From the IMG/VR virus record IMGVR_UViG_3300042484_000728: 64,000 bases of DNA; one strand, given 5' to 3'. The DNA comes from an uncultured virus (IMG/VR IMGVR_UViG_3300042484_000728). Taxonomy: Duplodnaviria > Heunggongvirae > Uroviricota > Caudoviricetes. Positions 17,957 through 62,488 of this stretch are shown in pieces. Under the pieces are notes generated by a model. The model searched no databases and had not been told where the DNA came from. It saw only the letters and a program-made list of their open reading frames with translations. The number at the start of each line of letters is the position of its first letter. Positions within the stretch are counted from its first letter, which is position 1. Both the position numbers and the translations under genes were made by a program.

Positions 17957-18619
17957 TTAGTTGTTAGATATTGTTACACTTGTGTTTAGTACTGGAGTTG
18001 TGATATTCCATTGAACATGTGTATTTGCAGAAAACTCTGTACCTGTGTCTGGTGTTAGATACGCTGTTTCACCGAATAGTTTGTATACATAGTATGTGCC
18101 ACCTGCGCTGTCAGTAGCACCGATGTAACCTTGACCTGCTGTTGGGCTACTGTTGTCTACTAGAGCAACTACACCTGTACCTTGTGCATTAGCCACTTTA
18201 TAGCGTTTGCTACCTGTTTGTTTAGTGATATCACTAGCAACTGCTGAACTACCGCCGTCTGCTGCAGATAGGTATGCTGTCATACTAATAGCATTAGCTG
18301 TTACACCTGTGCCGTATAATCTTGCATTACCAAATGCCGGTGAAGCGTTAGCACCAGTGATTGACATTGTTGGAGGTGATGTATAGCCTGTACCTGCTGT
18401 AGTTACAGTATAAGCAATAACGTTACCGTTAGCACTTAGAGTAACTGTACCTTGTGCTGTTGTACCACCTGTGATTTGTGGTGCTGAAAAAGTAACTGCG
18501 GCATTAGCTGAAAAATAGCCTCCACCAACGTGGTATACGTTAGCGTATAATACACCTTCACCACCTACACCACCTGAATTACGATTACCAAAATAAACTG
18601 ATTTTACTGGACGTCCCAT
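17957..18619 (-). CDS. Putative head decoration/structural protein (220 aa, MGRPVK...)
   Basis: AAGGAG SD before the ATG at 18619. It has its own late promoter (18693-18699) and terminator and lies near gp23. G/T/A-rich. Confidence 0.6.
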   Translation of the reverse strand: MGRPVKSVYFGNRNSGGVGGEGVLYANVYHVGGGYFSANAAVTFSAPQITGGTTAQGTVTLSANGNVIAYTVTTAGTGYTSPPTMSITGANASPAFGNARLYGTGVTANAISMTAYLSAADGGSSAVASDITKQTGSKRYKVANAQGTGVVALVDNSSPTAGQGYIGATDSAGGTYYVYKLFGETAYLTPDTGTEFSANTHVQWNITTPVLNTSVTISNN

Positions 18620-18705
18620 TTGTTTTCTCCTTAAAATATTTGGCGTTCTAGGCCTACGCGGTGGGGACCGCATAAGTTCTTATGAACAAATATATTTATC
18701 TAAAT

Positions 18706-27793: not shown

Positions 27794-28660
27794 ATGACTC
27801 AAACGCAATCGTCTAATTTAACTAATCCACTGGCTAGACACTTTAGACAACCAGTGATCTACACTAAACTACCTAGCCGCGGACAATATTGGCCAGAAGG
27901 CAGCTTAGAATTGTCTATGACTGGTGAGTTACCTATCTTGGCCATGAGCACCAAAGACGAAATTATCTTAAGAACGCCAGATGCGCTGTTAAACGGACAG
28001 GGTGTTATTGATGTTATACATAGTTGCTGCCCTAACATCAAAGATGCATGGAATATGCCTAGCATCGACGTAGATAGTGTTATTATTGCTATACGTATTG
28101 CCAGTTATGGTAATAAGATGGATTTCTCAAGTACATGCCCTCATTGTAATACAGAGCACGACTATGCTATTGACCTAGGTGTGGTATTAAATGGAATCGA
28201 AACTCCAAACTATAAAAAGGCCATCGAAGTTGACAATCTTAAGATTAAACTGCGCCCACAACCATACTTTAGTCTTAATAAAACCAACATTATTGCCTTT
28301 GAAGAACAACAATTATTAAGATCACTACAGCAGGCTGGCGATTCTGCCGAAGATGTACAGACAAAATTCAACAGTCAGTTAAACAAACTAATTGATCTTA
28401 ACATCATGATTGCCGCAGACAGTACAGAAAGCATTGAATTAGAAGATGGTCAATTGGTAACCGACGGTGGTTACATTAAAGAATTCTATTCAAACTGCGA
28501 TAATAAAACTGTCAAAGCGGTTAAAGCTCGGTTAGACGAATATAACAAACAGGCTAATATTAAACCATTTACAGTGACCTGTGGCAATGAAGAATGTGGT
28601 AAAGCCTTTGAGATTGATATTGTGTTCGACTTTGCAAGTTTTTTCGGAAAAGGCTCTTAG
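27794..28660 (+). CDS. gp26: Baseplate hub/tail assembly protein, T4 gp26-like
   Basis: 'LPSRG', 'MSTKDEIIL', 'D..IIAIRIASYG', CPHC and C-x4-C motifs, ending in 'SFF'. Confidence 0.7.
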   Translation: MTQTQSSNLTNPLARHFRQPVIYTKLPSRGQYWPEGSLELSMTGELPILAMSTKDEIILRTPDALLNGQGVIDVIHSCCPNIKDAWNMPSIDVDSVIIAIRIASYGNKMDFSSTCPHCNTEHDYAIDLGVVLNGIETPNYKKAIEVDNLKIKLRPQPYFSLNKTNIIAFEEQQLLRSLQQAGDSAEDVQTKFNSQLNKLIDLNIMIAADSTESIELEDGQLVTDGGYIKEFYSNCDNKTVKAVKARLDEYNKQANIKPFTVTCGNEECGKAFEIDIVFDFASFFGKGS

Positions 28661-29195: not shown

Positions 29196-29215
29196 TTAGT
29201 TTTTTCTGAGTTCTA

Positions 29216-29249
29216 GGAAGGGCATAGTCTAACAGCTATGTCCTTTTTT
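29216..29249 (+). terminator. Rho-independent terminator
   Basis: AAGGGCATAG-N8-CTATGTCCTT followed by TTTT. Confidence 0.8.
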
Positions 29250-29259
29250 GTTGTCTATT

Positions 29260-29715
29260 TGTTTAAGATGTCTTACGACATCTGCTTTATCGCTTTCGCT
29301 CTAAAGCCTTTTCTTCTATTCTTTATTAAGTTAATTTACTTTGAATTAATGTAAGCTCTTAAACGTTATCATCCAGATATCAGTCACAATTTACCTGTCC
29401 GAGGCAAATTGCAACCGCCGCATCATCCGAGTACTGCGTCACACTAACTATAAGAGATTGCTTTCAATAGCACGGAGGCGGTCAGCCTGTACCCCCTACT
29501 CTAGATTTCTCTGGCGGTAGCTCATACAGTCGTAGTTAGCCAACTGTCGTTTTGCTCCCAGGTCGATATGTTACGGAGCCTGGATCATTCGGCTTTTACA
29601 CCTATTGATATTGCCATTGCCGTCATGTGTGTAGTCTTATCTACACGTTCCACGTGCGGTACTTAAACGTAGCACGATCTCCTCATGACACAGATCACAT
29701 CTGCATTAGTGGCTG
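29260..29715 (-). ncRNA. Putative large structured non-coding RNA of unknown family
   Basis: The only long ORF-free gap in the window. GC-richer than its flanks, with many stems, GNRA loops on the minus strand and a possible pseudoknot (see findings). Confidence 0.55.
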
Positions 29716-29722
29716 TAATTTG

Positions 29723-30157
29723 TTACTTTGTAATTTTTAAATCTTTTACGGAATTTTTACCAAGTTTAAGTTGAATAATGCCGTTGTAGTTGTTTTCACG
29801 CAACAAGACATCCTCCTTAAATTGATAATAGGCTTCCAAGTAATTAGTTTCGCCTCTTGAGCTACACAAATGTATAATCTCACGAGTAAATTTCTCTTTG
29901 CCTAGTTGCTCAATATCTTCTATTAAGCGGTGTGATGAGCCCCAATAATCTTTCCAGTCTGTTTCTATGACTTCGTGTCGTTTATTTTTCTTGCCTTTTA
30001 GAGGTGGTCTCTTTTTGATGGTAGTAAAGTACTTGCGGCCAATATAATCATGACCATTTACTGTGTTTGTTATTCTATATATAAAGCCATAATAGGTTTG
30101 AATATCCTCAGAGTCAAATATTACACCATTGTACGTCCAAGGATATTCATATGCCAT
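29723..30157 (-). CDS. GIY-YIG endonuclease, catalytic domain only (T4 EndoII/Seg-like fold)
   Basis: 'GFIYRITN..NGHDYIGRK', 'YWGSS', 'FTREII', 'YLEAYYQ', 'YNG'. Confidence 0.85.
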   Translation of the reverse strand: MAYEYPWTYNGVIFDSEDIQTYYGFIYRITNTVNGHDYIGRKYFTTIKKRPPLKGKKNKRHEVIETDWKDYWGSSHRLIEDIEQLGKEKFTREIIHLCSSRGETNYLEAYYQFKEDVLLRENNYNGIIQLKLGKNSVKDLKITK

Positions 30158-30165
30158 AAGTCTAT

Positions 30166-30357
30166 TTATTTCGTTGTCTTAGCAGCATTTTTCTTCTCTT
30201 GAATTTCTGCACGACGAGCTTTAGTTAACTTGCCTAGGTCGCCTAAAGCGCCACGAGCACGTGTTCCTGCTGCGCCTACGCCTTTGCCTTCAAACTTCTC
30301 ATTTTCTGCTAGGTATGCATCATATGCTGCTACGATTTGTTCATGTGTTGTTGCCAT
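30166..30357 (-). CDS. Histone H1-like (Hc1 family) small basic protein
   Basis: 'ENEKFEGKGVGAAGTRARGAL..L.KL.K.RR' matches the Hc1-like pattern. AAGGAG SD. Confidence 0.75.
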   Translation of the reverse strand: MATTHEQIVAAYDAYLAENEKFEGKGVGAAGTRARGALGDLGKLTKARRAEIQEKKNAAKTTK

Positions 30358-47914: not shown

Positions 47915-50900
47915 ATGGCAACAAGAAAAACCTACAAATTTTTACCTACCGTATTCCAAAGTGATGCTAATAAGAAATTCTTAGCTGCTACAATGGATCA
48001 GTTAGTAACTGAACCAAACTTAGAAACGCTTTACGGATATATCGGTCGTAAATTTGCTCCTACATATAAACCTAGTGATAGTTATGTTATTGAATATAAC
48101 GCTACTAGACAAAATTACCAGTTGGAGCCGGGGGTTGTAATTCAAGATGAACAGAACAATGTTACCTTTGTTGCTGACTATATTGACCTATTAGATAAAA
48201 TTGGATATTACGGTGGGCTAACAAATAATCACAGTCGGTTATTTGAACAAGATTATTATACGTTTGATCCTAAAATTAGTTTCGACAAATTAATTAATTT
48301 TAGTCAATACTACTGGTTGCCCGATGGGCCCGATCCTGTTGATGTAAGCACTAGCGGGGTTGATTTAACGATTACCTACACCGTGACACGTGATGCTGCT
48401 AACGGTCGTTATATATTTAGAAACAACGGTGTTGTTGATAACAGTATTATTTGTGCCCGCGGCGGAGTTTATGAGTTTGTAGTTGACCAACCGGGTGTGC
48501 CGTTTTGGATTCAAACAGAGACTGGTATAGACGGTGTAGTTAGTGCTACTCCTACCTTAAGTTCACGCGATGTATTTGGCGTAGAAAATAACGGTGCTGA
48601 TAACGGTATAGTAACATTCAAAGTACCACAAACCTACGCACAAGATCGTTATGTCAATATGCCTACTGTGTTTAGTGTAGACTATGCTACTCCTATCCCG
48701 TACAGTCAGGTAGCTAATAAAACATTAAGCCAATTTTTAACCGCATATCCACAATATGCAGGTATCACAGGTCAACTAAACGGCAGATATACTATATTTG
48801 TCGATGTTAACACGTGGACAAATGCAGGTGAAGAAGCCTGGACGAATCCAGTAGTAGTTGACAATGACGGCGATATTATTCCGGGGTATGATGCCAATGC
48901 GGTCATTGCTGAAGAAGATCGTTATGACGTATGGCGTGTGGTTTATGTTGACATTGGTCAAAAATTACGTTTAGATACTGCTATTGCTGCAAATATTATT
49001 GCTGGTACAAGTTTAACAGTAGGAAGTCAAGTAGTATCATTATTATATGACGCAACTGTAGGACAAGAATATGTTTATGTTCCTAACACTGTTACGGTAT
49101 CGGCTAATGCGACTATAAAACGTACAGATGTCATAACCGCACTGTCTGCAACTGCATCTGGTACCAACGAGATCACTGTTACAACTACAACCGGCTTAGT
49201 AGCAAATATGCCTGTGGTATTTGTTGGAAACCCAGCAGTGGGAGGAATAATTTCAGGTACTACTTACTATATTAAAGATGTTACTTCAGTAACAACATTT
49301 ACAATCAGCGACACGGTTAGTGGAAGTGAATTTACCTTAACCAACGATACAGGAGTAATGAATGTAACAGCATCGTACACAGACATTGCTGCCGGAACTA
49401 TAGTTACAAGCATTGCATCTGGCGACCCGTTGCTTAAACTAGTTCATACTCAAGATGTAGCAGTTAATGAGAAGATCTATATTAAACTTGGCATTGCAAA
49501 TGCTAACAAAGAATTCTTTAAAGATTACGACGGCTTCTTTGCTACGGTTCCTTTATTGACTTCACAAAATGATCAATTATGGATTCAAGATGGGGTTGCG
49601 CCAAATATCTATACTCCGATTAAAATTATTCAATATGCTGGGTGGATAATAGATGTAGAGACTGATATCATAGGTCAGCAAAACTATACTAGTCCTAATG
49701 GTATTGAATTCACATCAGGGCTTAAAGTGCAATTTGGTGATGATGTAGCCCCAGCATACTATCAAAATCGTCAATTTTATGTTGAACAAGTTGGTGATAT
49801 CGGTGGCGGAATACAATTAGTACCAGTTGACGAGCTAGTAACTCCAGAAGCATATATTGATGAAATAGCAATAAATTATCCAGGTGAATATTTCCCCGAC
49901 TACATTACCATCAATCGTGCAAGTAAAGAACGCAATGCATGGTCTCGCGGCAATCGATGGTTCCATGTTGATGTAATTACTGCTACAGCAGCCTATAATG
50001 GCACTGTTCCAACTTTTAATAATGGTATTCGTGGCCAACGTCCTATTGTACAATTTGAATCTAATATGCAATTGGTCAATGATGGGCGTATTGCTAAAGC
50101 ACCAATTGACGTATTAGATACAACTATTCAAAATGCGTTCATTGACCTACAAGGTAAAATATATACCAGTGTATTTGGTATTGAGCTGTTTGACAGTAAC
50201 GGCGATATTGCCTACCCAGAAGGTCTACGTGTAATTTTTGGCAACGATACTGACCCGCTAGTTAAAAATAAAATTTATCTATTAACGTTAGTTCAATATA
50301 GCGTTAACTCGTTACAATTACCATCGGGCCCTTATTATGTTGAACTTACAAAAGCGGCCGATGGAGATGTTATTGCCTACAATACCACAGTGGTTAAACT
50401 AGGAATATATAAAGGTAGCCAATGGTGGTTTGATGGGGTTAATTGGAATCAAAGCCAACAAAAAGAATATCTACAACAACCCCCATTATTTGATGTCTTA
50501 GACAGTAGACTAGATCTAAGTACAGGAGAAGTTATTCAAGGTAAAAGTCTAAGCCAGTATACTCGTAGTACATTTATTGGCACACAGATCTTTGGATATG
50601 ATAGAGCAACTACAGGAACTACTGATAGTGTGTTAAGTAGAGGCCCTGTTGCACCTGTATATGATGCAAATGGCAATGCTATTACTAATTTTTACTTAAG
50701 TTATAAGAATTTTACCACTCAAGGTGATATTAAATTCCAAAACTTTTTTAATACTGATACCTTTAGTTACGTTGACGAGTCTGGAACGATTGTGTCGCGT
50801 AATGTTAATCTAGGCTACATTCAAAAAATTGTAGATAGCCAAACATTGGATCCAAAAAATACATGGCTAACAGTTCCAGAGCAAAGCAAACAATATCAGC

Positions 50901-53900
50901 TATTCAGCTTTGTTTATACTGAGCCAACAAACCCTGACAATTATCTAAATATCAACGGTTATACTGATACGTTTACCTTAGACATCACACCAGTAAGCGA
51001 TGAACAATCTATTCCTTATGTAAAAGTATTCCAGAATTTTGTATATTTAAAACCTACAATCGATTGGACAATTGTTGGTAATCAAATCACTATTAGTACT
51101 ACATTAAATATTAACGATCAAATTGATATTTTAGTCTATAGTAACGAAATAAGTTCTACAGCATTTTATCAAGTTCCACAAAATTTAGATTTAAATTCAC
51201 AGAACATTGATATTGATAGTTTAACGCTAGGCCAGCTACGTAACCACTTAGTAGCATTGGCACAAAACAGTACAATTGTTGAAGGTGATGTATTAGCACA
51301 AAGTAATCTACGTGATATTGATATTAAGCAACAGGGCGGTACCATTCTTAAACACAGTGCCCCTGTACCTTATGCAAGTTTATTTTTAATTGACGAACAA
51401 GCAAACTTTATTAACAGTGTTCGTTATACTCAACAAGAATACACTAAATTTAAAAACAAATTCTTAGAATTGAGCACTAGTCTTGAAGGTATTGACCCAA
51501 CAGATCCTATAGGCAGCGTTGATAAGATTTTAACAAGAATTAATATTGTTAAAAATAAATCATTCCCTTGGTATTATAGTGACATGGTACCTTACGGTCC
51601 GTTAAAAAATATTGTTGGACAAATAGGAGCAATCGACGGCTTTGAAGTATTTGATCCGTTGCAGACAAATTACGAAATTACAAATATTTTTAGTGATACA
51701 AAACTAAGCAATCAAGCTGTGTTGGTTTATTTAAATGATCAGCAGCTTATTAAAGGGCTCGACTACACCTTTAGAACAGATACGCCAAGTATCGATTTTA
51801 CTATTGCGTTGGCAGTTGGCGACATTATTAAAATTGTTGAGTATAGTAACACTGATGGTAACTATATTCCAGAAACTCCGTCTAAGTTAGGACTATGGCC
51901 GAGATACACTCCTGAGATTTTTGTAGATGACACTTATAGAACATCTACAACTGTTATTCGTGGCCACGATGGTAGTATTACTCCAAGTTTCGGTGACTAT
52001 CGCGATAGCTTCTTACTTGAATTAGAACTACGTATCTATAACAATATTAAATTATCTGCAAATACTACATTTAGCGAGATCTTTAGTGTAGTTCCGGGTA
52101 AATTTAGAAGTAGCGATTATACATTAGCAGATGCAAACCAAGTGCGAAGTCAAAGTTTCTTAAACTGGGTTGGTAACAACAAACTTGATTATACTATTAA
52201 TGATACTTTTGACCCCAATGATCCGTTCACTTGGAACTACAGTTCAAGTCGCGATCGTGTAAATGGTGAATTGTTGCCGGGTAGTTGGCGTGCATGTTAT
52301 ATGTATTTCTATGATACAATTCGTCCGCATTTAACACCTTGGGAAATGTTAGGATTTCCTAGTCAACCAGACTGGTGGCAAGGCTTCTATGGTCCTGCAC
52401 CATTTACTGGCGGCAATAAAGTTCTATGGGACGATTTAGAAGCAGGATACATCCGTTACGGTGATCGTCAAGGCATTGACCCACATTATGTACGCCCTGG
52501 CCTGTCAGATTTTATTCCAGTAGATGAAAACGGTAACTTAATCAGTGTGGCACAATTGTTATGTCGTACATTTAACAGCAAACAAGCAGGCGCAGCCTGG
52601 GCTATTGGCCAACAAGGTCCTGTGGAATTTGCCTGGCGTACGAGCAGCGACTTTCCATTCGCCGCCCAACAGGCCTTGGCGTTATTAAAACCAGCTAAGT
52701 ATTTTGGTACATTAATTGACGTAAACTCATATACTCCGTTAAATGCACTATACACTTTCTCAACTGATGTGCAGGGTATTACAACAGAAATTACTCAATA
52801 CCTTGAAGATAGTACAAATAGACAGATTACACAGTCTGCAGTTGACTATAATGGTAATACCAGTGCTGGTACAGTTTATCGCGGCGCAGGCTATATTAAC
52901 TGGATTACTGAATATTTGATCAACCAAGGCGTCAGCCCGGCAAAATATCTACTGCCGCTGGTACAAAACTTTCAAGTTAATTTAACCTATAAGGTAAGCG
53001 GATTTACAGATCAAAAATATCTAGAAGTATTAGCCGAACAAGTCAGTCCAACAAGTACCAATGATAGTATTCTTATACCTAATGAAAACTATAAAGTATT
53101 CCTAAATGAAAAACCAGTGGCCATGGATGAAATCATTTACAGTGCGTTAATTATTGAAAAAACAAATAATGGTTATAGTATGCGCGGCTATGATTTGTTT
53201 AATAGTTACTTTACAATCATTCCAAGTATTATAAACAATAATGCTAGTAAAATTAAAGTACTGAACAGTACAGCTACCATCTATAATGATTATCAAAATC
53301 TATTAATGAATGTACCCTACGGTTATGAATTTAATACGCAACAACAGGTAGTTGATTTTATGATCAGCTACGAACGTTATCTAATAGCACAAGGATGGAC
53401 ATTTACAGATACTGATCCCCAATTAAATGAAATCAAAAACTGGCGGTTAAGCGCACGTGAATTCTTATACTGGGCTCAACAAGGATGGAAAGCGGGCAGT
53501 ATTTTAGTAGTAAGTCCAGTATCGAACACATTAAATGCCATTACCAGCGGTGCGGTGACAGAAGGCATCGAAGATAGTCAATACGGTAGTAGAGTTGTTG
53601 ACCAAAACTTTAATCTTATTAAGAATAACAATTATGCAGTTTATAGAACACCTACAGAGTTCAAATTAGAGCTGCAAGATGAGGCCAGTGTTATCGGTTA
53701 TGTAAAAGTTTCATTGGTGCAATACGAACATACGCTAATTTTTGATAATACCACAGTGTTCAATGACGTTATCTACCAACCAAGTAGTGGTAACCGCCAG
53801 TTCCGTTTAAAACTAATTGGTCAGCGCACCGCAGATTGGGACGGTAGTCTAAGCCCAGAAGGTTACATATATAACAGCGGCGTAGTAGATGCCTGGTACC

Positions 53901-56900
53901 AAGGCCAAGATTATCTTAAAGGTGATCTGGTACAATACAAGAGTCAATATTATACTGCTCTTCGAGATATCCCCGCTAATGGAACATTTCAGTTCCAAAA
54001 CTGGCAGGTGTTAGGCAAGAACGAAATACAAACAGGCCTACTGCCTAATTTTAGCACAATTGCTGTAGAAAGTCAATCATTTTATGATAGTTACGCTAAG
54101 ATACGTAACAAAAATCAAATGGCCTACAGTCATGCACTTATTGGCTTTAGAGAACGTCAATACCTTAGTGATTTAGGTCTAACAGAAACAACACAAATTG
54201 AATTCTACAAAGGTTACGTAGCGCAAAAAGGTACTAAGAATGCAGTTGATGCGTTTACCAAAGCAACTATTAATAACCTAACTAGCAACATTGCACTATA
54301 TGAAGAGTGGGCAGTGCGTGTTGGTGAATACGGTGCACTGACTAGCAATCCGTTTGTTGAAATTGCCTTAGATGAAAAAGCATTTGGGGTAAACCCTAGT
54401 GTGGCGAGTTTTGTAGACGCTGCCGATAATAATTTAGCCAATGGGGTTACTATATTCAATAGTACACAATTGCATAAATCATATGGTGCATACTCTGCTA
54501 ATGTTGCTTTGAACAGAACTGAAAATAGTGACTATGACAATGATATTCCTACAGCAGGATATGTAAATATTGACGACGTAGATTTGCAAATTTTTGACTT
54601 AACAAATTATGTTGACTTGGATAATAAGATTGCAGATATGGGCAGTGGTTATCTAATTTGGGTAGCTAAAGACTTTACGCAAGATTGGAATGTATTTCGC
54701 GTAACAGAAACTAATAATCAGATCACCGCAGTGACAAATAGTCTGAATGGATATATTACATTTACTACAGATAATCCACACGGCCTTTCTAAATATGATA
54801 TATTCTTAGTTAAGAATTTTGACGCGGCCTACAACGGCTTCTATCAAGTACTACGTGTAACTGGTGCATCGAGTCTTTTGGTAAGATATACAGGCGATAT
54901 TACTAACCTAGGTAACTTAACTACACAAACAGGTAGTGGTATGTTATTCCGTTTAGATAGCATGCGCTTTAAATACATGGAAGAAAGTCGTGTGTACGGG
55001 TTGTTAAATCCACCCAACGGCTGGAAAGTTGGAGATAAGATTTGGATTGACATAGATGCAGAAACCACCGCAGTACAAGGTCAACCATTTGGCACACAAC
55101 CTAGCGGCACATGGAAGGTATATGAAAAACAAACGCCGTGGGGCCTGGATCAAGAGGTAATTAAAGGCGGTAGTGAATATGTGCCCAATGACGGATTTGG
55201 GACTTCAGTAAAAATGTCGTCAGACGGTTTGATTATCGTTGCCGGAGCAGCACAACAAGGACAAATTCAATTTACCACAACAGGCTATTTAAACGCCAAT
55301 GTTGGTGCTTATATCGAACAGGTTTCGTCTGGTGCTAACTTAACTTTAGTTAGCAACCTAGGTGGAAACATATATGCTGGTCAATACAATAATAATTTTA
55401 CGTTTGACTCAACTGGTAACTTATCTATACTTTCTATAGACACTGGCGCTAAATTTATATCATCTACTACACGCATTGGTTATGTAAATACGTTCCTTAA
55501 AAACTATGCAGGCGAATTTGATCAAGGTCTCATATTGACCCCAACAGCCGCAAATACCTATGCATACGGTCATTCAGTTGATCTAGCAACTACAGCTGCT
55601 GGTAATACTAAAGTAGCAATCGGTGCTCCGAGTAGCTGGTCAGGAAACGGATACGTGTATATCTATGACAAAACCTTATCAAGCTACTCGTTTGATCGTA
55701 GTCAAATTCTTGTAAGTAATGTTACTGGTGACCAATTCGGTTACAGTATGGCATTTAATCAAGACGGTGAGTGGTTATACATCAGTGCTCCGGGTAATAA
55801 CAGTGTTTATGCATACGGATTAAAACGTTATGTTCCAGTACAAACACAGCTTACTTCTGTTAATAACAAAAATACTGTATACCTAAACAGTCCTATTTCA
55901 GTTAACCCAACTGACGTATTAATACAGGCTAATACTGGCGCAAGAACTTCTGTTCTTAGTGTAGTTTCTAGCACAGAAATTGTTGTTGATAACATTACAA
56001 ACTTTGTAAAAGTAACAACAGGCACAGACGGTAATGTGGTAATTGATGCCAACTTAACTATACTTGCTAACATTAGTGTTTTAAGTAGTGGTAACTTAGT
56101 ATCATATGGTGTTTATCCAACCGACCTAAGAAGCAATGCCGCAGTGAGCAGTATTCAGATAAACTCATTTACACCAGACTTTACTTCGGGTAGTGATGCT
56201 AGTAGTTTATTAGTTACTAGTTTAGATAAAACATTTATACCTAATATTGACTATGTATTCGATTACAGCACACGTACCGTTAGATTTATCAACAACGGTA
56301 ATATTGCCAGCAATGCTAATATTTCTGCAACGACCGTTACTATTACGCAACGCCCTTACTATGCCTTGGTACAAAAATTAACTGTTCCTACTGGTAACAG
56401 TTGGGCACAGTTTGGATATGCTATTTCCTCAAGTTTTGATGGTGCACAGGTAGCTGTTGGTGCCCCCGGCGATACCGTTGAAGATATCAACGGTATACTT
56501 CAATTGGGTGCTGGTGCAGTTTATGTATACGATCGTGTTATTGAAGCATTTAATTCAGTTACTGATGCAGTAGCTGGTACAGGTGGCCAAGACTATAACA
56601 CTGAAAATATCATTGCAACTGTACATAAAGTTACCATTGACGGTATTGAAAATATACAATATACAGTAGTAGGTACTAATACAATCAGATTTACTAATCC
56701 GCCTGCAATTGGCCAGGTTATTCTTGTTGAGGTTAATAAATTTAACTACCTAGAACGCCTAATCGGTGTAGATAGTTTAACAGGCGGCTTAGCTGCAATT
56801 CAGGCAAACGCTGCGTTCGGTACGAGCTTAACAATTTGTAGTAATAACTGTGCGATTTACATTGGTGCACCATATTATGATAACGGTACAGAATATAACA

Positions 56901-59900
56901 GTGGTGCCGTATGGAAATTCCATAACCGCGGTAGATTGTATGGTACTGACACGGGCTATGTACTAAACCCAACATTTAATCCAGTTGATACAATTCGTTT
57001 AAACAATTTTGAAGTTCGTATTAGTCTAGGCCTAACAGGCAACGTAACTGTAAGTACTGGAGATTGGATCACACAACCAAGCACTGGCGCTAACGTGCGA
57101 GTGACAGAAAGTACTACAGGTGACATTGTTAAAGTTTCAGGATATCAAAACGCCTACGTATTCTCAACAGGTGCAAACGTAGCAATTAATAACTCGTGGA
57201 CTGCATCAAATGTTGCAGTTAGGTTAACTACCTTAGACGAATTTGTACAAGATGTAAATGACGCTAACATTTTAGGAGTAACAGCCACAAATGAAAACGG
57301 ATATTTACGTTTAGACTCAGATGTTAAAGTTGCCAAAGACCAACTACGTATACTTTCAGGCATTACGAATTCTAGTAGTGCAGGTGTACTTGCAGAATCT
57401 GAAATGATTGTATTTGCATTCATGCAGATTATTGTTAATCCTTACGGGTTACCTGGTGAATATTTTGGTACAAAAGTTAAACTAGCAGCAAATGCATACA
57501 TGCTAGTGATTGGTAGTGCTCGAGGCACTACTAAAGAACTTACAACCATTGATGTGAGTACTACGACCAACGGAACTGTATTTGACGCGGCGTCTACTAG
57601 ACTACATGATAGAATACCAGGTAGTGGTAGTGTTTACATTTACGAATTATATGACGATCCACGTGATGATGTAGAGGATCCGGGACGATATGCATTTGCA
57701 CAACAATTAGACCCGGGTATATTAATTCCCGGCGGTCAATTTGGATATGCATTAGATATTGAAGGGGCATATATTACTATTGCAGCACCATTTATGGCAC
57801 CAGCGGGTGCACCTGCTAAATCCGGTAGTATCTATGTGTTTAGTAACCCTACGATGGCTAGGGGCTGGGGACTAATACGTTATCAATCTCCTAAAGTTGA
57901 TTTAGATAGTGTAACTCGTGCGTACCTATACAGTAGTCAAACTAATTTAATTGAAGAAAATTTACAATTTGTTGATCCAGCTAAAGGGCGCATATTAGGA
58001 CAAGCAGAAGAAAATATTTCATTTAAGACAGAATACGATCCTGCTGTTTATAATAAAGGATATAACTCAGAAGCTGATATTAATTCTAGTGTCTACTGGA
58101 GTGACAAACAAGTAGGAAAAGTTTGGTGGGATTTAAGTACTGTTCGCTTTATTGATTACGAACAAGATTCACTAACCTATCGTAGTCTACATTGGGGTGA
58201 GTTGTTCCCAGGAAGTTCGATTAATGTGTATGAATGGATAGAAAGCACAGTATTACCAAGCCAATATGTTAACACTAATGGAGCATTACAGGGCATACCT
58301 AAACATGAAGACGATAGTGCGTATGTTGAAATAATTACGGTTGATCAGACAACAGGCATTATTACTACTAGGTATTTTTTCTGGGTATACGATCAAACTC
58401 ATTTAGATGACACGATACCGAGCCGTACCTTGCCAGTGAAGGCAATCGTAGATTATATTGCAAATCCTAAATCACAAGGTATTCCTTATGCGGCTATGAT
58501 ACGCAGTAATGCTATTGTATTCTACAATGTTGCTACTTACCTAAGTTCCGATAATACCATTGTTCACTTAGATCATCAATTAGAAATTAACACTGATTTG
58601 ATTCACAGTGAATACGAGTTAATACAAAAAGGTAATCCTAATAATCCGATTCCGACTAAATTAGTTAACAAGTTTGTCGACAGTTTAGCAGGGATTGACC
58701 AGCAGGGTTCAACGGTGCCTGATCCAACATTGAGTTTAGCAGATCGATATGGTGTTGATATTCGTCCACGCCAAAGTATGTTTGTTGATAGACTATCAGC
58801 AGTCAATGAAATGATTCAATATGTTAATGATATTTTTGCTATTAATCCTATTGCTGAACAATTTGACTTAACCGGATTAAATGCTCAAGAAGCAGAGCCT
58901 AATTTTAAATTAGGTGAATATGATCAAGCAGTGTCGACAGAAGTTGAGTTAGAGTATATAGACACATTGCCGTTATCACCGGGATACCGTGTACTAGTTA
59001 AAAACGATACATCACAAAACGGATTGTGGGTTTTATATACATTAACAGATAGTAAGAGTTGGCTGATCACCAGAGTACAAAGTTATAAAACAAGTATCTA
59101 TTGGTCATATGCTGACTGGTATGCTACAGGATATAGTGCTTCAACTAAACCAGACTTTAGCGTAGAAACTACAGTTAATGCACTTGCATTACAAGCAATT
59201 GCCGGCAGTGTAATTTATATTCGCAACGCTACAGGTAATAATACATGGCAACTAGTAGTAGTTGAGGTTGGCGGTGGATTGGGTGTAGTAGGCATCCAAA
59301 ACGGTACAGTACAATTAGATACTACACTAGGTAATTATGTAGATAATAATTTAGGGTTTGGTAATCAAGATTTTGATAGCAACAGATACGATCAAAATCC
59401 TAACAAAGAAATTCGTTCGATTGTACAAGCATTATATAATAACATTTTTAAAAATACCTTACAAGGTGAATTTAATAACTTGTTCTTTGTAATGATTAAC
59501 TATCTATTAACTGAACAAACTTATGTAGATTGGTTATTTAAATCTAGCTTTATTAGTATCACACATAAACTAAGAACTCTAAGTCAGTTCCCGAGCTATG
59601 TAGTTGATAACCAAACATACTATCAAAATTACATTGAAGAAGTTAAACCGTACCGTACTAAGATACGTGAATATCTATTAGATTATACAGGCAATGACAC
59701 TTTTGGCGGCGATATTACAGACTTTGACTTACCGGCTTACTATGATACATTTGGTCTTACATCAATGTTCCGTAGTCCGAGCGGAGAAGCACCGTATGTG
59801 GCCAAGGATTCAGCAACATGGCAAACATGGCCGTATAACCAATGGTACAATAATAGAAATCTTGTAGTAGATGGCATTAGAATTGAAAATGCCGGTAAAG

Positions 59901-62488
59901 GATACATCCTTCCACCTGCGATAACTATTATCAGCACTGACGGTAATGGAAACGGTGCCACGGCCACTGCAACTCTTGATGGTAATTCGGGTAGTTTAAT
60001 TTCTATTACAGTGACAAACAGTGGCTCAGGCTACACCACAACCCCAACTGTAATTGTAAATGGTTCTGTAGTAGGTAATATTGTAGTTATTGGTGGCAAT
60101 GTAAACTTAATATCATCCACATACACTATTAATTCAACTGCTGGTTTATTCACTGGAATGAGCGCAAACACAGCATTTGATGCAACCACAGTGATTGCGG
60201 CAATTGACAGTGCAAACAGTCAAATTACCATGTCGTCGGCTAATATTTCCTCATTTACCGGCACTGCAATTAGCTTCGGATATACAAGTATAAATGCAGG
60301 TACCGTTGCTACTGCGTATGCAGTAATGAAAAACCCTGTAGTGCGTTCATTTAACAGCACACTTAAATTTGACCGTATTAACTATACAAGTAATGTCAAG
60401 GTGTGGACAGCTAATACTACCTACATTCAAACACAGTTTGATGCTAATGGTCGTGTAAGTAGCGGTGATATCATTACCTATGCATTCCAAGACGGCAATG
60501 TTATGCTACGTAAAGCGTATTTTATAAATTCTAATATCACAACCTCAACACAGTTCATACCTAGTGATTATACAGTATGTCCAGCAAGCTACTTTAGCAA
60601 TGCTAACGACCGTATTATTGGTTACTACGAGCCAGCAAACGTAATGCCGGCGGTGGATACTATACAAACTGCGGTAACTATGGCTAATACAGCCACTAAC
60701 ACAAACACTATCTATGTGTATAATGCAGCCAGTCTTGCTAAAAATATGTATATTGGTGAAAGTGGTGTACAAGCGGGCTATGTAACGGGTCTAATTGGTA
60801 ATATTAATTTACAAGTTAATAGCCTGGGACACTTTTATGGTAATCTATACAAAGGCAGTACTGCAATTGAAAATATTACCAACATGTCGGGTCTACAAGT
60901 TGGACAGTATGTAACTGGTGCTAATATTGGATTTGAAGCCACTATTGTAAGTGTTAACTATACAACAAACAGCGTTAACTTAACAGATACAATCAGTGGT
61001 AATCTTACATTGGCTAATATTAGCTTTGGCGGCATCCCAATTAAAGTAACACAGGTTACACTAAGTACCAACGTAACACTAGCTACTGATACAACTATCA
61101 CAGCACGTTATGACAGCTTAGAACAATTAGTACCAGGAGTAACATATCCAACATCAGTAACGCAAAGCGTACCATTTACGCTAAATCCATTATTTGGACG
61201 TAGTTATGATATTGCACCGTATGATCCTGTACAATTTAGCAAGGATGGTATTGCATTATTATCAACAAGCGTGTATGATCAAGCATTGTATAGCCTATAT
61301 GCTAACATTGCATTGGGTACAGCACCTGAAGATATAGTAACACAGGGTGGTCAATTTATTGATACATATCATAGCCGTGCTCCGGAAGAACTTGTACCGG
61401 GTATTACGTTTGACACGTTAGATATGCGTATCTATACTAAAGTTGGTGCAAACGTAGCTGCTTATCGTATATTTGATAATATGGTTAACGAACCAGCATA
61501 TTTGAAGATTTCAACTGCCAATACCACACAATTATCAACTAATTTAAGTATTACAGATGCTAACATTTATGTTATAGATGCAACATTATTAACTGAACCT
61601 AGTCCATTATATGCTCGCCCTGGTGTAGTGTTTATTAACGGTGAACGTATCACGTATTACAAAAAAAATATCTATACTCCTGTGGTATGGTCAGCTAATA
61701 CAGCATACGCTGCGGGCACTGCAATTAACTATGCAGGTAATAACTATATTGTTACTGGTAACGTTAATGCTAATAGTTGGAACTATGTAAGTACTGCAAA
61801 CATCAGCTACTTACCTGGTACAAATGTACTTGGCCAAATACGCCGCGGTACCCAAGGTACCGGTGCTAATGTATTATATCCAGTGGGTGTACGGGTAACT
61901 GATGCTAGTCCTAACCAAACATTACCAGATACAGTATACGGTAATTTAATGGTAAATGCTAATGTACTTTACAATTCAGGAACTGGAGGAAATATATTAG
62001 AAGGCAATGGATTAGTTGGTTCAACAACTAGTGCAGCAATGTTTATAAAAGATTGGCCATCATATGACCCAACAAACATCTATACTTATGTAATCAATAC
62101 ACCGGTTACTAACTGGAGCCTAGCAGTAAACGCAAGCACAGCAAGATTTGCATCTAACGTAACAATTTCTGATGTATTTGGTGTAGTTGTTACTAGTTCA
62201 GCCACTGAAAGCCTACTACCTGCGTCCAGCAGAACAATGAAGTATACATGGGAATGGTCTGCTGACGGTATTACTTGGAATGTAATTACTGATAGCTGGA
62301 CTTATATTGATGGAATACAGTTTGCTCAAGGTACAAATAACACCTTAAGTTTAGTTAACTTAAATGATCCTGCGCACGCATGGTACCCAACAGGACCAAT
62401 AGGATATCAAGTTAGATGTACTACTACATTTAACAGCATTTACGGGCTAATACCGTTTGCGTCAGCCACGGGTACTATAACAGCTTAA
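47915..62488 (+). CDS. Giant baseplate/receptor-binding structural protein (4857 aa) with FG-GAP repeats
   Basis: Single uninterrupted ORF after gp6. Seven FG-GAP-like blades, CBM5/12-like W-x5-Y motifs, 'VKPYRTKIR', and an Ig-like C-terminus. Confidence 0.75.
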   Translation: MATRKTYKFLPTVFQSDANKKFLAATMDQLVTEPNLETLYGYIGRKFAPTYKPSDSYVIEYNATRQNYQLEPGVVIQDEQNNVTFVADYIDLLDKIGYYGGLTNNHSRLFEQDYYTFDPKISFDKLINFSQYYWLPDGPDPVDVSTSGVDLTITYTVTRDAANGRYIFRNNGVVDNSIICARGGVYEFVVDQPGVPFWIQTETGIDGVVSATPTLSSRDVFGVENNGADNGIVTFKVPQTYAQDRYVNMPTVFSVDYATPIPYSQVANKTLSQFLTAYPQYAGITGQLNGRYTIFVDVNTWTNAGEEAWTNPVVVDNDGDIIPGYDANAVIAEEDRYDVWRVVYVDIGQKLRLDTAIAANIIAGTSLTVGSQVVSLLYDATVGQEYVYVPNTVTVSANATIKRTDVITALSATASGTNEITVTTTTGLVANMPVVFVGNPAVGGIISGTTYYIKDVTSVTTFTISDTVSGSEFTLTNDTGVMNVTASYTDIAAGTIVTSIASGDPLLKLVHTQDVAVNEKIYIKLGIANANKEFFKDYDGFFATVPLLTSQNDQLWIQDGVAPNIYTPIKIIQYAGWIIDVETDIIGQQNYTSPNGIEFTSGLKVQFGDDVAPAYYQNRQFYVEQVGDIGGGIQLVPVDELVTPEAYIDEIAINYPGEYFPDYITINRASKERNAWSRGNRWFHVDVITATAAYNGTVPTFNNGIRGQRPIVQFESNMQLVNDGRIAKAPIDVLDTTIQNAFIDLQGKIYTSVFGIELFDSNGDIAYPEGLRVIFGNDTDPLVKNKIYLLTLVQYSVNSLQLPSGPYYVELTKAADGDVIAYNTTVVKLGIYKGSQWWFDGVNWNQSQQKEYLQQPPLFDVLDSRLDLSTGEVIQGKSLSQYTRSTFIGTQIFGYDRATTGTTDSVLSRGPVAPVYDANGNAITNFYLSYKNFTTQGDIKFQNFFNTDTFSYVDESGTIVSRNVNLGYIQKIVDSQTLDPKNTWLTVPEQSKQYQLFSFVYTEPTNPDNYLNINGYTDTFTLDITPVSDEQSIPYVKVFQNFVYLKPTIDWTIVGNQITISTTLNINDQIDILVYSNEISSTAFYQVPQNLDLNSQNIDIDSLTLGQLRNHLVALAQNSTIVEGDVLAQSNLRDIDIKQQGGTILKHSAPVPYASLFLIDEQANFINSVRYTQQEYTKFKNKFLELSTSLEGIDPTDPIGSVDKILTRINIVKNKSFPWYYSDMVPYGPLKNIVGQIGAIDGFEVFDPLQTNYEITNIFSDTKLSNQAVLVYLNDQQLIKGLDYTFRTDTPSIDFTIALAVGDIIKIVEYSNTDGNYIPETPSKLGLWPRYTPEIFVDDTYRTSTTVIRGHDGSITPSFGDYRDSFLLELELRIYNNIKLSANTTFSEIFSVVPGKFRSSDYTLADANQVRSQSFLNWVGNNKLDYTINDTFDPNDPFTWNYSSSRDRVNGELLPGSWRACYMYFYDTIRPHLTPWEMLGFPSQPDWWQGFYGPAPFTGGNKVLWDDLEAGYIRYGDRQGIDPHYVRPGLSDFIPVDENGNLISVAQLLCRTFNSKQAGAAWAIGQQGPVEFAWRTSSDFPFAAQQALALLKPAKYFGTLIDVNSYTPLNALYTFSTDVQGITTEITQYLEDSTNRQITQSAVDYNGNTSAGTVYRGAGYINWITEYLINQGVSPAKYLLPLVQNFQVNLTYKVSGFTDQKYLEVLAEQVSPTSTNDSILIPNENYKVFLNEKPVAMDEIIYSALIIEKTNNGYSMRGYDLFNSYFTIIPSIINNNASKIKVLNSTATIYNDYQNLLMNVPYGYEFNTQQQVVDFMISYERYLIAQGWTFTDTDPQLNEIKNWRLSAREFLYWAQQGWKAGSILVVSPVSNTLNAITSGAVTEGIEDSQYGSRVVDQNFNLIKNNNYAVYRTPTEFKLELQDEASVIGYVKVSLVQYEHTLIFDNTTVFNDVIYQPSSGNRQFRLKLIGQRTADWDGSLSPEGYIYNSGVVDAWYQGQDYLKGDLVQYKSQYYTALRDIPANGTFQFQNWQVLGKNEIQTGLLPNFSTIAVESQSFYDSYAKIRNKNQMAYSHALIGFRERQYLSDLGLTETTQIEFYKGYVAQKGTKNAVDAFTKATINNLTSNIALYEEWAVRVGEYGALTSNPFVEIALDEKAFGVNPSVASFVDAADNNLANGVTIFNSTQLHKSYGAYSANVALNRTENSDYDNDIPTAGYVNIDDVDLQIFDLTNYVDLDNKIADMGSGYLIWVAKDFTQDWNVFRVTETNNQITAVTNSLNGYITFTTDNPHGLSKYDIFLVKNFDAAYNGFYQVLRVTGASSLLVRYTGDITNLGNLTTQTGSGMLFRLDSMRFKYMEESRVYGLLNPPNGWKVGDKIWIDIDAETTAVQGQPFGTQPSGTWKVYEKQTPWGLDQEVIKGGSEYVPNDGFGTSVKMSSDGLIIVAGAAQQGQIQFTTTGYLNANVGAYIEQVSSGANLTLVSNLGGNIYAGQYNNNFTFDSTGNLSILSIDTGAKFISSTTRIGYVNTFLKNYAGEFDQGLILTPTAANTYAYGHSVDLATTAAGNTKVAIGAPSSWSGNGYVYIYDKTLSSYSFDRSQILVSNVTGDQFGYSMAFNQDGEWLYISAPGNNSVYAYGLKRYVPVQTQLTSVNNKNTVYLNSPISVNPTDVLIQANTGARTSVLSVVSSTEIVVDNITNFVKVTTGTDGNVVIDANLTILANISVLSSGNLVSYGVYPTDLRSNAAVSSIQINSFTPDFTSGSDASSLLVTSLDKTFIPNIDYVFDYSTRTVRFINNGNIASNANISATTVTITQRPYYALVQKLTVPTGNSWAQFGYAISSSFDGAQVAVGAPGDTVEDINGILQLGAGAVYVYDRVIEAFNSVTDAVAGTGGQDYNTENIIATVHKVTIDGIENIQYTVVGTNTIRFTNPPAIGQVILVEVNKFNYLERLIGVDSLTGGLAAIQANAAFGTSLTICSNNCAIYIGAPYYDNGTEYNSGAVWKFHNRGRLYGTDTGYVLNPTFNPVDTIRLNNFEVRISLGLTGNVTVSTGDWITQPSTGANVRVTESTTGDIVKVSGYQNAYVFSTGANVAINNSWTASNVAVRLTTLDEFVQDVNDANILGVTATNENGYLRLDSDVKVAKDQLRILSGITNSSSAGVLAESEMIVFAFMQIIVNPYGLPGEYFGTKVKLAANAYMLVIGSARGTTKELTTIDVSTTTNGTVFDAASTRLHDRIPGSGSVYIYELYDDPRDDVEDPGRYAFAQQLDPGILIPGGQFGYALDIEGAYITIAAPFMAPAGAPAKSGSIYVFSNPTMARGWGLIRYQSPKVDLDSVTRAYLYSSQTNLIEENLQFVDPAKGRILGQAEENISFKTEYDPAVYNKGYNSEADINSSVYWSDKQVGKVWWDLSTVRFIDYEQDSLTYRSLHWGELFPGSSINVYEWIESTVLPSQYVNTNGALQGIPKHEDDSAYVEIITVDQTTGIITTRYFFWVYDQTHLDDTIPSRTLPVKAIVDYIANPKSQGIPYAAMIRSNAIVFYNVATYLSSDNTIVHLDHQLEINTDLIHSEYELIQKGNPNNPIPTKLVNKFVDSLAGIDQQGSTVPDPTLSLADRYGVDIRPRQSMFVDRLSAVNEMIQYVNDIFAINPIAEQFDLTGLNAQEAEPNFKLGEYDQAVSTEVELEYIDTLPLSPGYRVLVKNDTSQNGLWVLYTLTDSKSWLITRVQSYKTSIYWSYADWYATGYSASTKPDFSVETTVNALALQAIAGSVIYIRNATGNNTWQLVVVEVGGGLGVVGIQNGTVQLDTTLGNYVDNNLGFGNQDFDSNRYDQNPNKEIRSIVQALYNNIFKNTLQGEFNNLFFVMINYLLTEQTYVDWLFKSSFISITHKLRTLSQFPSYVVDNQTYYQNYIEEVKPYRTKIREYLLDYTGNDTFGGDITDFDLPAYYDTFGLTSMFRSPSGEAPYVAKDSATWQTWPYNQWYNNRNLVVDGIRIENAGKGYILPPAITIISTDGNGNGATATATLDGNSGSLISITVTNSGSGYTTTPTVIVNGSVVGNIVVIGGNVNLISSTYTINSTAGLFTGMSANTAFDATTVIAAIDSANSQITMSSANISSFTGTAISFGYTSINAGTVATAYAVMKNPVVRSFNSTLKFDRINYTSNVKVWTANTTYIQTQFDANGRVSSGDIITYAFQDGNVMLRKAYFINSNITTSTQFIPSDYTVCPASYFSNANDRIIGYYEPANVMPAVDTIQTAVTMANTATNTNTIYVYNAASLAKNMYIGESGVQAGYVTGLIGNINLQVNSLGHFYGNLYKGSTAIENITNMSGLQVGQYVTGANIGFEATIVSVNYTTNSVNLTDTISGNLTLANISFGGIPIKVTQVTLSTNVTLATDTTITARYDSLEQLVPGVTYPTSVTQSVPFTLNPLFGRSYDIAPYDPVQFSKDGIALLSTSVYDQALYSLYANIALGTAPEDIVTQGGQFIDTYHSRAPEELVPGITFDTLDMRIYTKVGANVAAYRIFDNMVNEPAYLKISTANTTQLSTNLSITDANIYVIDATLLTEPSPLYARPGVVFINGERITYYKKNIYTPVVWSANTAYAAGTAINYAGNNYIVTGNVNANSWNYVSTANISYLPGTNVLGQIRRGTQGTGANVLYPVGVRVTDASPNQTLPDTVYGNLMVNANVLYNSGTGGNILEGNGLVGSTTSAAMFIKDWPSYDPTNIYTYVINTPVTNWSLAVNASTARFASNVTISDVFGVVVTSSATESLLPASSRTMKYTWEWSADGITWNVITDSWTYIDGIQFAQGTNNTLSLVNLNDPAHAWYPTGPIGYQVRCTTTFNSIYGLIPFASATGTITA

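Follow-up and report, generated by a model that had tools for sequence, protein, structure and literature searches.

The window analysed here (the whole 64-kb stretch of DNA, 64,000 nucleotides) is part of the genome of a large T4-like phage. It encodes gp23, gp20, a prohead protease, tail and baseplate proteins and a gp47/gp46-like pair; related near-complete records span 327-347 kb. On the minus strand, gp47 is followed by gp46, a radical-SAM gene, two small genes (one Hc1-like), a 144-aa GIY-YIG gene and a 473-nt gap, beyond which lie convergent genes. The Hc1-like gene (30166-30357, minus strand) encodes a 63-aa histone-H1-like protein; such a gene also precedes the nuclease in L103, L115 and G008 and is not in that slot in L084. 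Elsewhere, the window holds an Rfam freshwater-2 RNA directly behind an ATAAATA motif (18617-18692, minus strand, 57.6 bits), TTTTTTC near the end of the baseplate-hub gene (28639-28645, plus strand) and a gene for a 4857-aa protein whose sole match is FG-GAP (47915-62488, plus strand).

The 144-aa protein consists of a single GIY-YIG domain of the SegE type, in agreement with an earlier note on this DNA, which had seen no extra DNA-binding repeats in it. It has the GIY-YIG fold and the Tyr/Tyr/Glu/Asn active-site residues: Y27, Y38 and E108 are invariant in 127 homologs, and N125 is kept in 126. The structure model (pLDDT 86) finds its best fold match, a weak one, in the I-TevI catalytic domain (E 0.19); a single-sequence model was poor (pLDDT 43). 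The position of the I-TevI helix-1 Arg is presumably occupied by Asp67 here. The protein also has a lysine-rich beta-hairpin. In PHROGs and many phage records its family is labelled 'NAD synthetase', though it is a GIY-YIG domain. All 470 phage records with the family contain one match each, so it is not a mobile element.

The late promoter that had been proposed before this gene is borne out: the ATAAATA there is the late-promoter motif of this phage, with 17 copies in the window (chance expectation 33.8), nearly all just 5' of genes. Of 132 GIY-YIG homologs, only 33 have ATAAATA (or ATAAGTA, also counted) at most 45 nt from the start. A second motif, GACAC-N3-GTC, occurs in 30 of 136 loci, and 31 of its 33 matches fall 200-600 nt upstream of the RNA core described below. 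It is found once in the 329-kb genome G008, is absent from G006, and in G002 lies in repeats before each copy of the RNA.

The gap itself (29250-29722) is overlapped by no ORF of at least 40 aa, and its core is GC-rich (46-51% versus 31-38% on the flanks), both as first described. The features of the locus are as follows.

29723..30157, minus strand: SegE-type GIY-YIG nuclease gene, 144 aa (PF19835, phrog_447)
30163..30169, minus strand: ATAAATA late-promoter motif before the GIY-YIG gene (from the motif count in the window)
29969..29979, minus strand: GACAC-N3-GTC motif inside the GIY-YIG coding sequence (from positional enrichment upstream of the RNA in relatives)
29619..29713, minus strand: 5' multibranch domain of five helices, swappable; the Rfam Polynucleobacter-1 motif takes its place in other subtypes
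29558..29602, minus strand: two short hairpins, GGU/GCC and CCAGG/CCUGG (helices 6-8 of the 88-pair model)
29525..29548, minus strand: hairpin whose loop (29533-29540) pairs with 29443-29450 to form pseudoknot 1 (helices 9 and 10 of the model)
29474..29514, minus strand: conserved core with GGGGG/CCUCC stem, UAC bulge and tetraloop 29482-29485 (from covariation)
29482-29485 with 29511-29514, minus strand: pseudoknot 2, formed by the tetraloop
29499-29502 with 29453-29456, minus strand: pairing of the AGAG strand
29422..29428, minus strand: box 1 (GGAUGAU)
29384..29414, minus strand: long inter-box hairpin, G-U rich, with a good fold on the minus strand only
29368..29374, minus strand: box 2 (GGAUGAU), same sequence as box 1
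29308..29367, minus strand: A/T-rich linker, candidate unwinding element
29266..29307, both strands folding about equally: two abutting tail hairpins of the DNA mini-hairpin type, with GCGAAAGC at 29292-29299
29215..29248, plus strand: terminator-like hairpin of the convergent 77-aa gene, outside the element

Fold, conservation and relatives of the element

Read on the minus strand, the ~450-nt element folds better than shuffled sequences (z -3.3; plus strand, z -2.5). In an alignment of 36 relatives (A1), 96.7% of the cells of an 88-pair model are paired and 36 of the 88 pairs show double changes. The covariation score is 0.314 versus 0.04-0.07 in slid controls, a score favoured by the fact that the structure was drawn from the same 36 sequences. 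G-U cells outnumber A-C cells in A1 by 330 to 10, which fixes the minus strand as the sense. The earlier note had reached the same strand from GNRA loops, a weak argument: the tail loops vary as GNNA and cGNAg, and its GAAA loop belongs to the unconserved AGA/UCU stem.

Stems drawn in that note fared as follows in the 36 relatives. GUCAUG/CAUGAC (95.8% paired), CGUGC/GCACG, GUGUAG/CUACAC and GGGGG/CCUCC (100% each), ACAGUUG/CGACUGU (98.6%), the long CAAUUUGCCU hairpin (98.9%) and the terminal hairpins (95-98%) are kept. CCAGG/CCUGG is paired in 77.8%, with what by eye looks like a register shift. The AGA/UCU stem (70%), CUAC/GUAG (86%, no double change) and the GCUCC/GGAGC H-type pseudoknot (64%; 117 of 500 shuffles were equally good) did not hold up. 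The element carries two other pseudoknots that were absent from that list. A 7-bp match forms pseudoknot 1 in 91 of 115 RNAs of two clades (33-47 with partners shuffled), and 228 of 229 distinct RNAs, among which kin share variants, can form the three inner pairs of pseudoknot 2 (61-86 with loops shuffled). Pairing of AGAG/CUCU, UGAG/CUCA or GGAG/CUCC is present in 113 of the 115. The core also contains many invariant unpaired bases. Mutual information computed across mixed clades mainly reflected kinship, and per-clade and motif-anchored counts were used instead.

A protein-first search kept 80 of 197 relatives. The RNA motifs lie, in order, downstream of 79 of these close homologs, in some after an insertion of ~800 nt; the record of the 80th ends without downstream DNA. 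The 5' start of the RNA is within ~10 nt of the nuclease stop codon, and its 3' end consists of conserved hairpins. The ~450-nt segment is a conserved, covarying, structured non-coding element that is common to a large group of uncultured giant aquatic phages.

The RNA had been called undescribed. This stands in so far as the window matches no Rfam family at gathering score (best E-values 1.6-9.8), and fails in that the RNA is a variant of a full-length Polynucleobacter-1 RNA. Polynucleobacter-1 (Rfam RF01718) is a 141-position model with a gathering cut-off of 37 bits, at which the window, having a different 5' domain, gives no match. In a distant relative (L106), RF01718 lies exactly at the place of the window's 5' domain. 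A probe for the GGUAC-GG-NNNA-CCGCC core variant found at least 120 loci; 20 were tested and all 20 match RF01718 as their 5' domain (subtype C, 69-121 bits), in the same gp47-gp46-nuclease slot and with twin boxes and tail. One model made from both types scores all subtypes. Judged by the core, slot, boxes and tail that it shares with the RF01718-bearing loci, the window RNA belongs, as a variant, to a larger RNA, and the Rfam model covers just one exchangeable 5' domain of it. On the same comparison, the 5' domain is swappable and the core and 3' part are kept across subtypes.

In the available part of the 2010 alignment of Polynucleobacter-1 (Weinberg et al., PMC2864571), 3'-extended rows carry the same hairpin, pseudoknot 1 and GGUAC-GG-NNNA-CCGCC core, and the window likewise has the 3' hairpin-loop pseudoknot and the bulged GG-NNNA-CC core stem. 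That part ends at pseudoknot 1, without pseudoknot 2, boxes or tail. The table entry there describes the motif as possibly cis-regulatory, from Burkholderiales and from fresh water or estuary (PMC2864571). By eye, the consensus of cow-rumen-2 (RF02947) is similar to the core as well, with a CCAU/AUGA that agrees with pseudoknot 2; it scores 15.6 bits against the window (cut-off 66, E 9.8). Homology to cow-rumen-2 is plausible on this resemblance. A probe built from the cow-rumen-2 consensus gave 7 matches, all of them chance.

Blastn searches of 50,697 phage records with the window RNA and two other subtypes returned short chance matches or none, and a contig scan with a loose pattern passed 2 of 120 loci through the pseudoknot-2 filter, both coding-like. 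RNase P, group I/II introns, tmRNA, hammerhead and C/D-box RNAs were rejected, having no Rfam or ARAGORN match and the wrong topology. No description of the full RNA, boxes and tail was found in the literature searched, which omits most subscription papers; the available parts of PMC9602691 and bioRxiv 10.64898/2026.09.22.753630 do not mention the element.

Twin boxes, tail hairpins and multiple copies

Two 7-nt boxes flank the long hairpin. They were parsed in 225 of 233 distinct RNAs with a pattern that required box-like, not identical, words, and are identical in 222 of the 225 (29 expected if independent), in 12 identical-pair variants. On trees built without the boxes, box position 1 changed jointly in 6/6, 14/15 and 17/18 cases in three clades. 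In the three clade alignments, each variable box position covaries best with its counterpart in the other box, and no column complementary to the boxes was found within ~290 nt of the core; the one box-column exception is a nearly invariant position in clade B. No third copy of a flanked box was found in two complete genomes. Co-change for identity, repeated dozens of times and with no complementary RNA partner, goes beyond ordinary pairing.

Distant subtypes keep box identity with other sequences (ACAUGAA, ACAGGAA, GGUAAAG, GGGUAAU, UCUUGAU), which were picked by position and by eye; a loose twin-repeat scan was unspecific (40 of 42 gp46-linked loci versus 34 of 64 control segments). In genome G002 the boxes, assigned from their position, measure only 5 nt; UGCAG occurs twice in one copy of the RNA and CGCAG twice in three. 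Since the pairs agree within each copy, the match is a within-copy one, on the evidence of a single change. Box spacing has no 3-nt periodicity. A neo-like concatemer ORF was rejected.

The tail was surveyed in 115 loci chosen for identical boxes and full flanks. Of 279 tail hairpins, 76 have a cGNAg loop on the top strand and 21 have one on the opposite strand, compared with none of 450 core hairpins and 0-3 per shuffle. In tail GC-GNNA-GC loops, a third-position pyrimidine is about as frequent as a purine, and G-U/G-T pairs make up 11% of pairs in the tail and 21% in the core. Folded as DNA, the window tail reaches -10.8 and -9.7 kcal/mol on the two strands, and the inter-box hairpin -8.2 and -5.0 kcal/mol; the last tail loop of the window is cGTAAg, a tetraloop. 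The longest of the three perfect cGNAg hairpins of genome G006 is at the RNA locus; the single one of G008 is elsewhere. The available part of PMC13037366 describes GCGAAAGC and GCGNAGC as exceptionally stable in DNA and far less stable in RNA, and places such loops at the priming sites of phages G4, St-1 and alpha3. A clear cGNAg tail is missing from the RNAs of L354, L399 and L401 and from the copies in G002.

Four diverged copies are spread over G002, at 34.8, 165.5, 232.8 and 311.0 kb, only one of them beside the nuclease. Each lies in a non-coding island of at least ~1.1 kb with repeats upstream and A/T-rich, iteron-like repeats downstream (Tandem Repeats Finder, run on one copy, reported a 12-bp array only). 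Two of the four have similar copies in other assemblies. G002 is the exception among 15 RNA-bearing records; the other 14, most of them incomplete, hold one full copy each. G008 has in addition a copy of the 5' domain only (G008:C1:131976-132078, plus strand), downstream of a gene whose type is also found inserted between nuclease and RNA, and this is probably a recombination remnant.

A possible replication origin or structural RNA

The complement of the boxes that always exists is the template DNA strand, and from this we infer that the RNA could act in cis through an R-loop. Tentatively, and at somewhat less than an even chance, we suggest that the element is a bipartite replication-initiation signal in a lineage of large aquatic T4-like phages, its RNA acting in cis as a primer or R-loop RNA at an origin. 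The folded transcript would present box 1 in a loop, and box 1 would pair, behind RNA polymerase, with the template-strand complement of box 2. Such pairing would oblige the boxes to be identical without a third RNA partner. It would nucleate an R-loop that persists across the A/T-rich linker; mini-hairpins formed by the displaced DNA would hold the bubble open and load helicase and primase, and the RNA 3' end would prime synthesis, like ColE1 RNA II and T4 oriF transcripts. The full scheme, in which a lineage-wide primer RNA starts jumbo-phage replication by pairing of a box with the template copy of its twin and a bubble stabilised by mini-hairpins is handed to the replisome, is rather doubtful.

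Box identity, the joint box changes and the lack of a complementary partner in the RNA argue for an origin, as do the DNA-type tail loops and the four dispersed G002 copies with their iteron-like A/T repeats. Sigma-70-like promoters at free-standing copies of the RNA, of which L401 has a perfect TTGACA-17-TATAAT, may point the same way; the window itself has the A/T-rich linker and a late motif. In L408 and L336, a gene that we take to encode an RNase H-like protein, from its motifs, lies between nuclease and RNA and is consistent with the same role. At T4 oriF and oriG and in ColE1 RNA II, as in the proposed scheme, the transcript enters an A/T-rich stretch and the displaced strand is available for primosome loading. 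ColE1 RNA II is unrelated to the element in sequence and uses a G-tract.

T4 offers a precedent, having several R-loop origins per genome, each with a promoter and an unwinding element and one named after the recombination gene uvsY (available part of PMC3016281). However, the T4 R-loops require no specific RNA sequence or fold, and they use middle promoters whereas the nearest motif here is late (PMC3016281, same part); the core model finds nothing in T4. Cumulative GC skew makes no turn at the locus in G006 or G008 (the nearest turns are ~15-45 kb away) and follows gene orientation, with no switch of strand bias. That several copies lack the cGNAg tail, that the last tail loop of the window is a tetraloop, that metatranscriptome contigs cover the RNA patchily and at low depth, and that one full copy per record is the rule also speak against an origin. 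The tail could simply be a two-way terminator, and a ribozyme or a protein-bound RNA would account no less well for the many invariant unpaired bases of the core. The element further resembles ARRPOF, GEBRO and PAGEV, large structured motifs tied to replication regions and possibly ssDNA (PMC5737381, in the part available), but these are plasmid-borne and the window has no Rfam match to them.

Unlikely, if well within reach, is a trans-acting or structural RNA of the GOLLD/ROOL type that self-assembles through its boxes. The boxes, being quasi-palindromic, would kiss within or between chains, and the tail would be a terminator or 3' cap. Symmetric kissing loops build GOLLD, ROOL and OLE oligomers, and GOLLD shares with the element an ornate core with several pseudoknots, a 3' part that is conserved and a 5' part that varies (PMC12286853, available part). 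Like GOLLD and ROOL, the element is a large, ornate, phage-encoded RNA. It differs in being shorter, off the tRNA islands, without an Rfam match and equipped with twin boxes and a DNA-type tail. By eye, most variants have self-pairing box centres (AU, UA, GU, CG), but self-complementarity is imperfect at positions 2/5 (G-G, G-A, C-A), and kissing of box 1 with box 2 would not alone force identity. Of 74 clade-B RNAs, 64 have in their 5' domain a 7-mer that we take to be T-loop-like, and the late promoter in the window also fits such an RNA; DNA-type tail loops on both strands are left unexplained by it, and the locus lies away from the tRNA arrays of G006 and G008. Nor is there a sign of a very abundant RNA in four metatranscriptome runs, seen as contigs only. 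These four were taken from 8 runs with shares of 0.05-0.17 in a read survey; X1 covers 58 nt of the RNA, X2 none, and X5 and X8 cover parts of it at a depth of ~3-9, so that coverage is patchy and low. The tRNA gene array of G006 contains a starred (permuted-type) tmRNA prediction (G006:C1:110821-111310).

The neighbouring nuclease and remaining alternatives

The earlier note had suggested a possible OMEGA/HEARO-like ribonucleoprotein with the GIY-YIG protein. In such a particle, the RNA would be a guide or a cofactor of a structure-specific nuclease. We addressed the link with an RNA-first set of 240 loci, from which 104 with less than 1.5 kb upstream and 10 duplicates were left out. Among the 126 counted, the upstream slot holds GIY-YIG in 114 (101 directly upstream, 13 separated by other DNA), PD-(D/E)XK (PF24608) in 9 (6 directly, 3 separated) and neither in 3 (L354, L399, L401). 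Other genes separate nuclease and RNA in 16 of the 126. Several RNA subtypes have PD-(D/E)XK instead of GIY-YIG, in one case beside an RNA that is 92% identical: the RNAs of L095 and L152 agree in 302 of 330 nt, yet L095 has GIY-YIG and L152 the unrelated PD-(D/E)XK. G002 combines four copies with one nuclease, PD-(D/E)XK; PF19835 gives no more than a weak, partial match there, in a frame of 399 aa. PF24608 finds no match in G006, G007 or G008. Conversely, the GIY-YIG family occurs without the RNA in all three cultured phages tested (Melnitz-3, P-RSM4, phiN3), where the core model finds nothing.

On the other side, adjacency persists down to ~35-45% protein identity. The core model matches 31 of 70 distant GIY-YIG homolog loci at E <= 0.01 (rough E-values), nearly all just downstream, many in the gp47-gp46 slot and some, by record name, from marine assemblies. 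This close adjacency, beside the lysine-rich beta-hairpin of the protein, is the main fact left for a ribonucleoprotein, and operon synteny explains it equally well. The upstream nuclease is a neighbour and not an obligate partner of the RNA. As in OMEGA and HEARO, a structured RNA adjoins a nuclease gene; the element differs in having no fixed nuclease, no guide and no mobile multicopy habit. Conservation in 20-nt windows of A1 ranges from 0.68 to 0.95, with no guide-like hypervariable segment seen, and in place of scattered insertion sites there is a fixed gp47-gp46 slot. OMEGA/HEARO nucleases are by definition RuvC/HNH, and here they are GIY-YIG or PD-(D/E)XK. We consider a nuclease ribonucleoprotein improbable. 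The fallback offered in the earlier note, an RNA acting independently and possibly in replication, is supported, its independence by the nuclease swaps and the free-standing copies.

The GIY-YIG protein is probably the branched-DNA resolvase of the lineage, closing the gp47-gp46 operon. Across the near-complete genomes tested (G002, G006, G007, G008), the two nucleases exclude each other and endonuclease VII is absent from all four (T4 control positive); from this we infer that GIY-YIG and PD-(D/E)XK may be interchangeable resolvases. Structure-specific GIY-YIG nucleases such as Slx1 exist (PMC1564403, part available).

L015, L030, L038 and L068 have a free-standing GIY-YIG homing-endonuclease-like gene with its own ATAAATA between the nuclease stop and the RNA; it comes after a short relic of the RNA 5' domain and is followed by the full RNA, altered in sequence there. 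The RNA looks like a homing target. In L367, a deletion fuses the GIY-YIG reading frame to a point midway in the RNA 5' domain, with loss of the C-terminal Asn motif, and is either real or an assembly error. At L516:2047-2279 (minus strand), a rearranged locus, the RNA is upstream of and divergent from GIY-YIG, with gp46 downstream.

Still less probable is that the whole element is a ssDNA fold, such as a large ssDNA origin or recombination signal, and never a functional RNA. Covariation cannot tell ssDNA from RNA (PMC5737381, available part), the tail is of DNA type, and metatranscriptome coverage is as poor as described. However, the core has 25 GNRA versus 4 GNYA loops and no cGNAg, T-loop-like motifs are present, the transcribed orientation is always kept, and free-standing copies have gained a promoter of their own. 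Least likely of all is a ribozyme, or a repeat-synthesis template with the twin boxes as splice, recombination or template-jump sites, which would suit the invariant unpaired core bases, the two pseudoknots and the short identical repeats that flank the template in DRT2 and telomerase, but 5/5 genomes gave no reverse transcriptase where positive controls were detected, the boxes have neither periodic spacing nor an internal guide, and there is no Rfam ribozyme match.

Relative to the available part of the 2010 report, the twin-box identity, the DNA-type cGNAg tail and pseudoknot 2 are new; the RF01718 5' domain and the core with pseudoknot 1 were already known. An orphan 141-nt Rfam motif thereby becomes the 5' module of a ~450-500-nt element, found at nearly every gp47-gp46-nuclease slot inspected in a large lineage of giant T4-like phages from fresh and marine waters. 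An RNA-guided GIY-YIG system it is not on present evidence, and that false lead is removed either way. If the RNA assembles into oligomers, it would be another GOLLD/ROOL-like target for cryo-EM. If it marks an origin, it would give a handle on the start of replication in uncultured giant phages. As a primer RNA, it would represent a new class of RNA-controlled viral origin, and identity covariation would become a new rule for spotting cis-acting R-loop RNAs.
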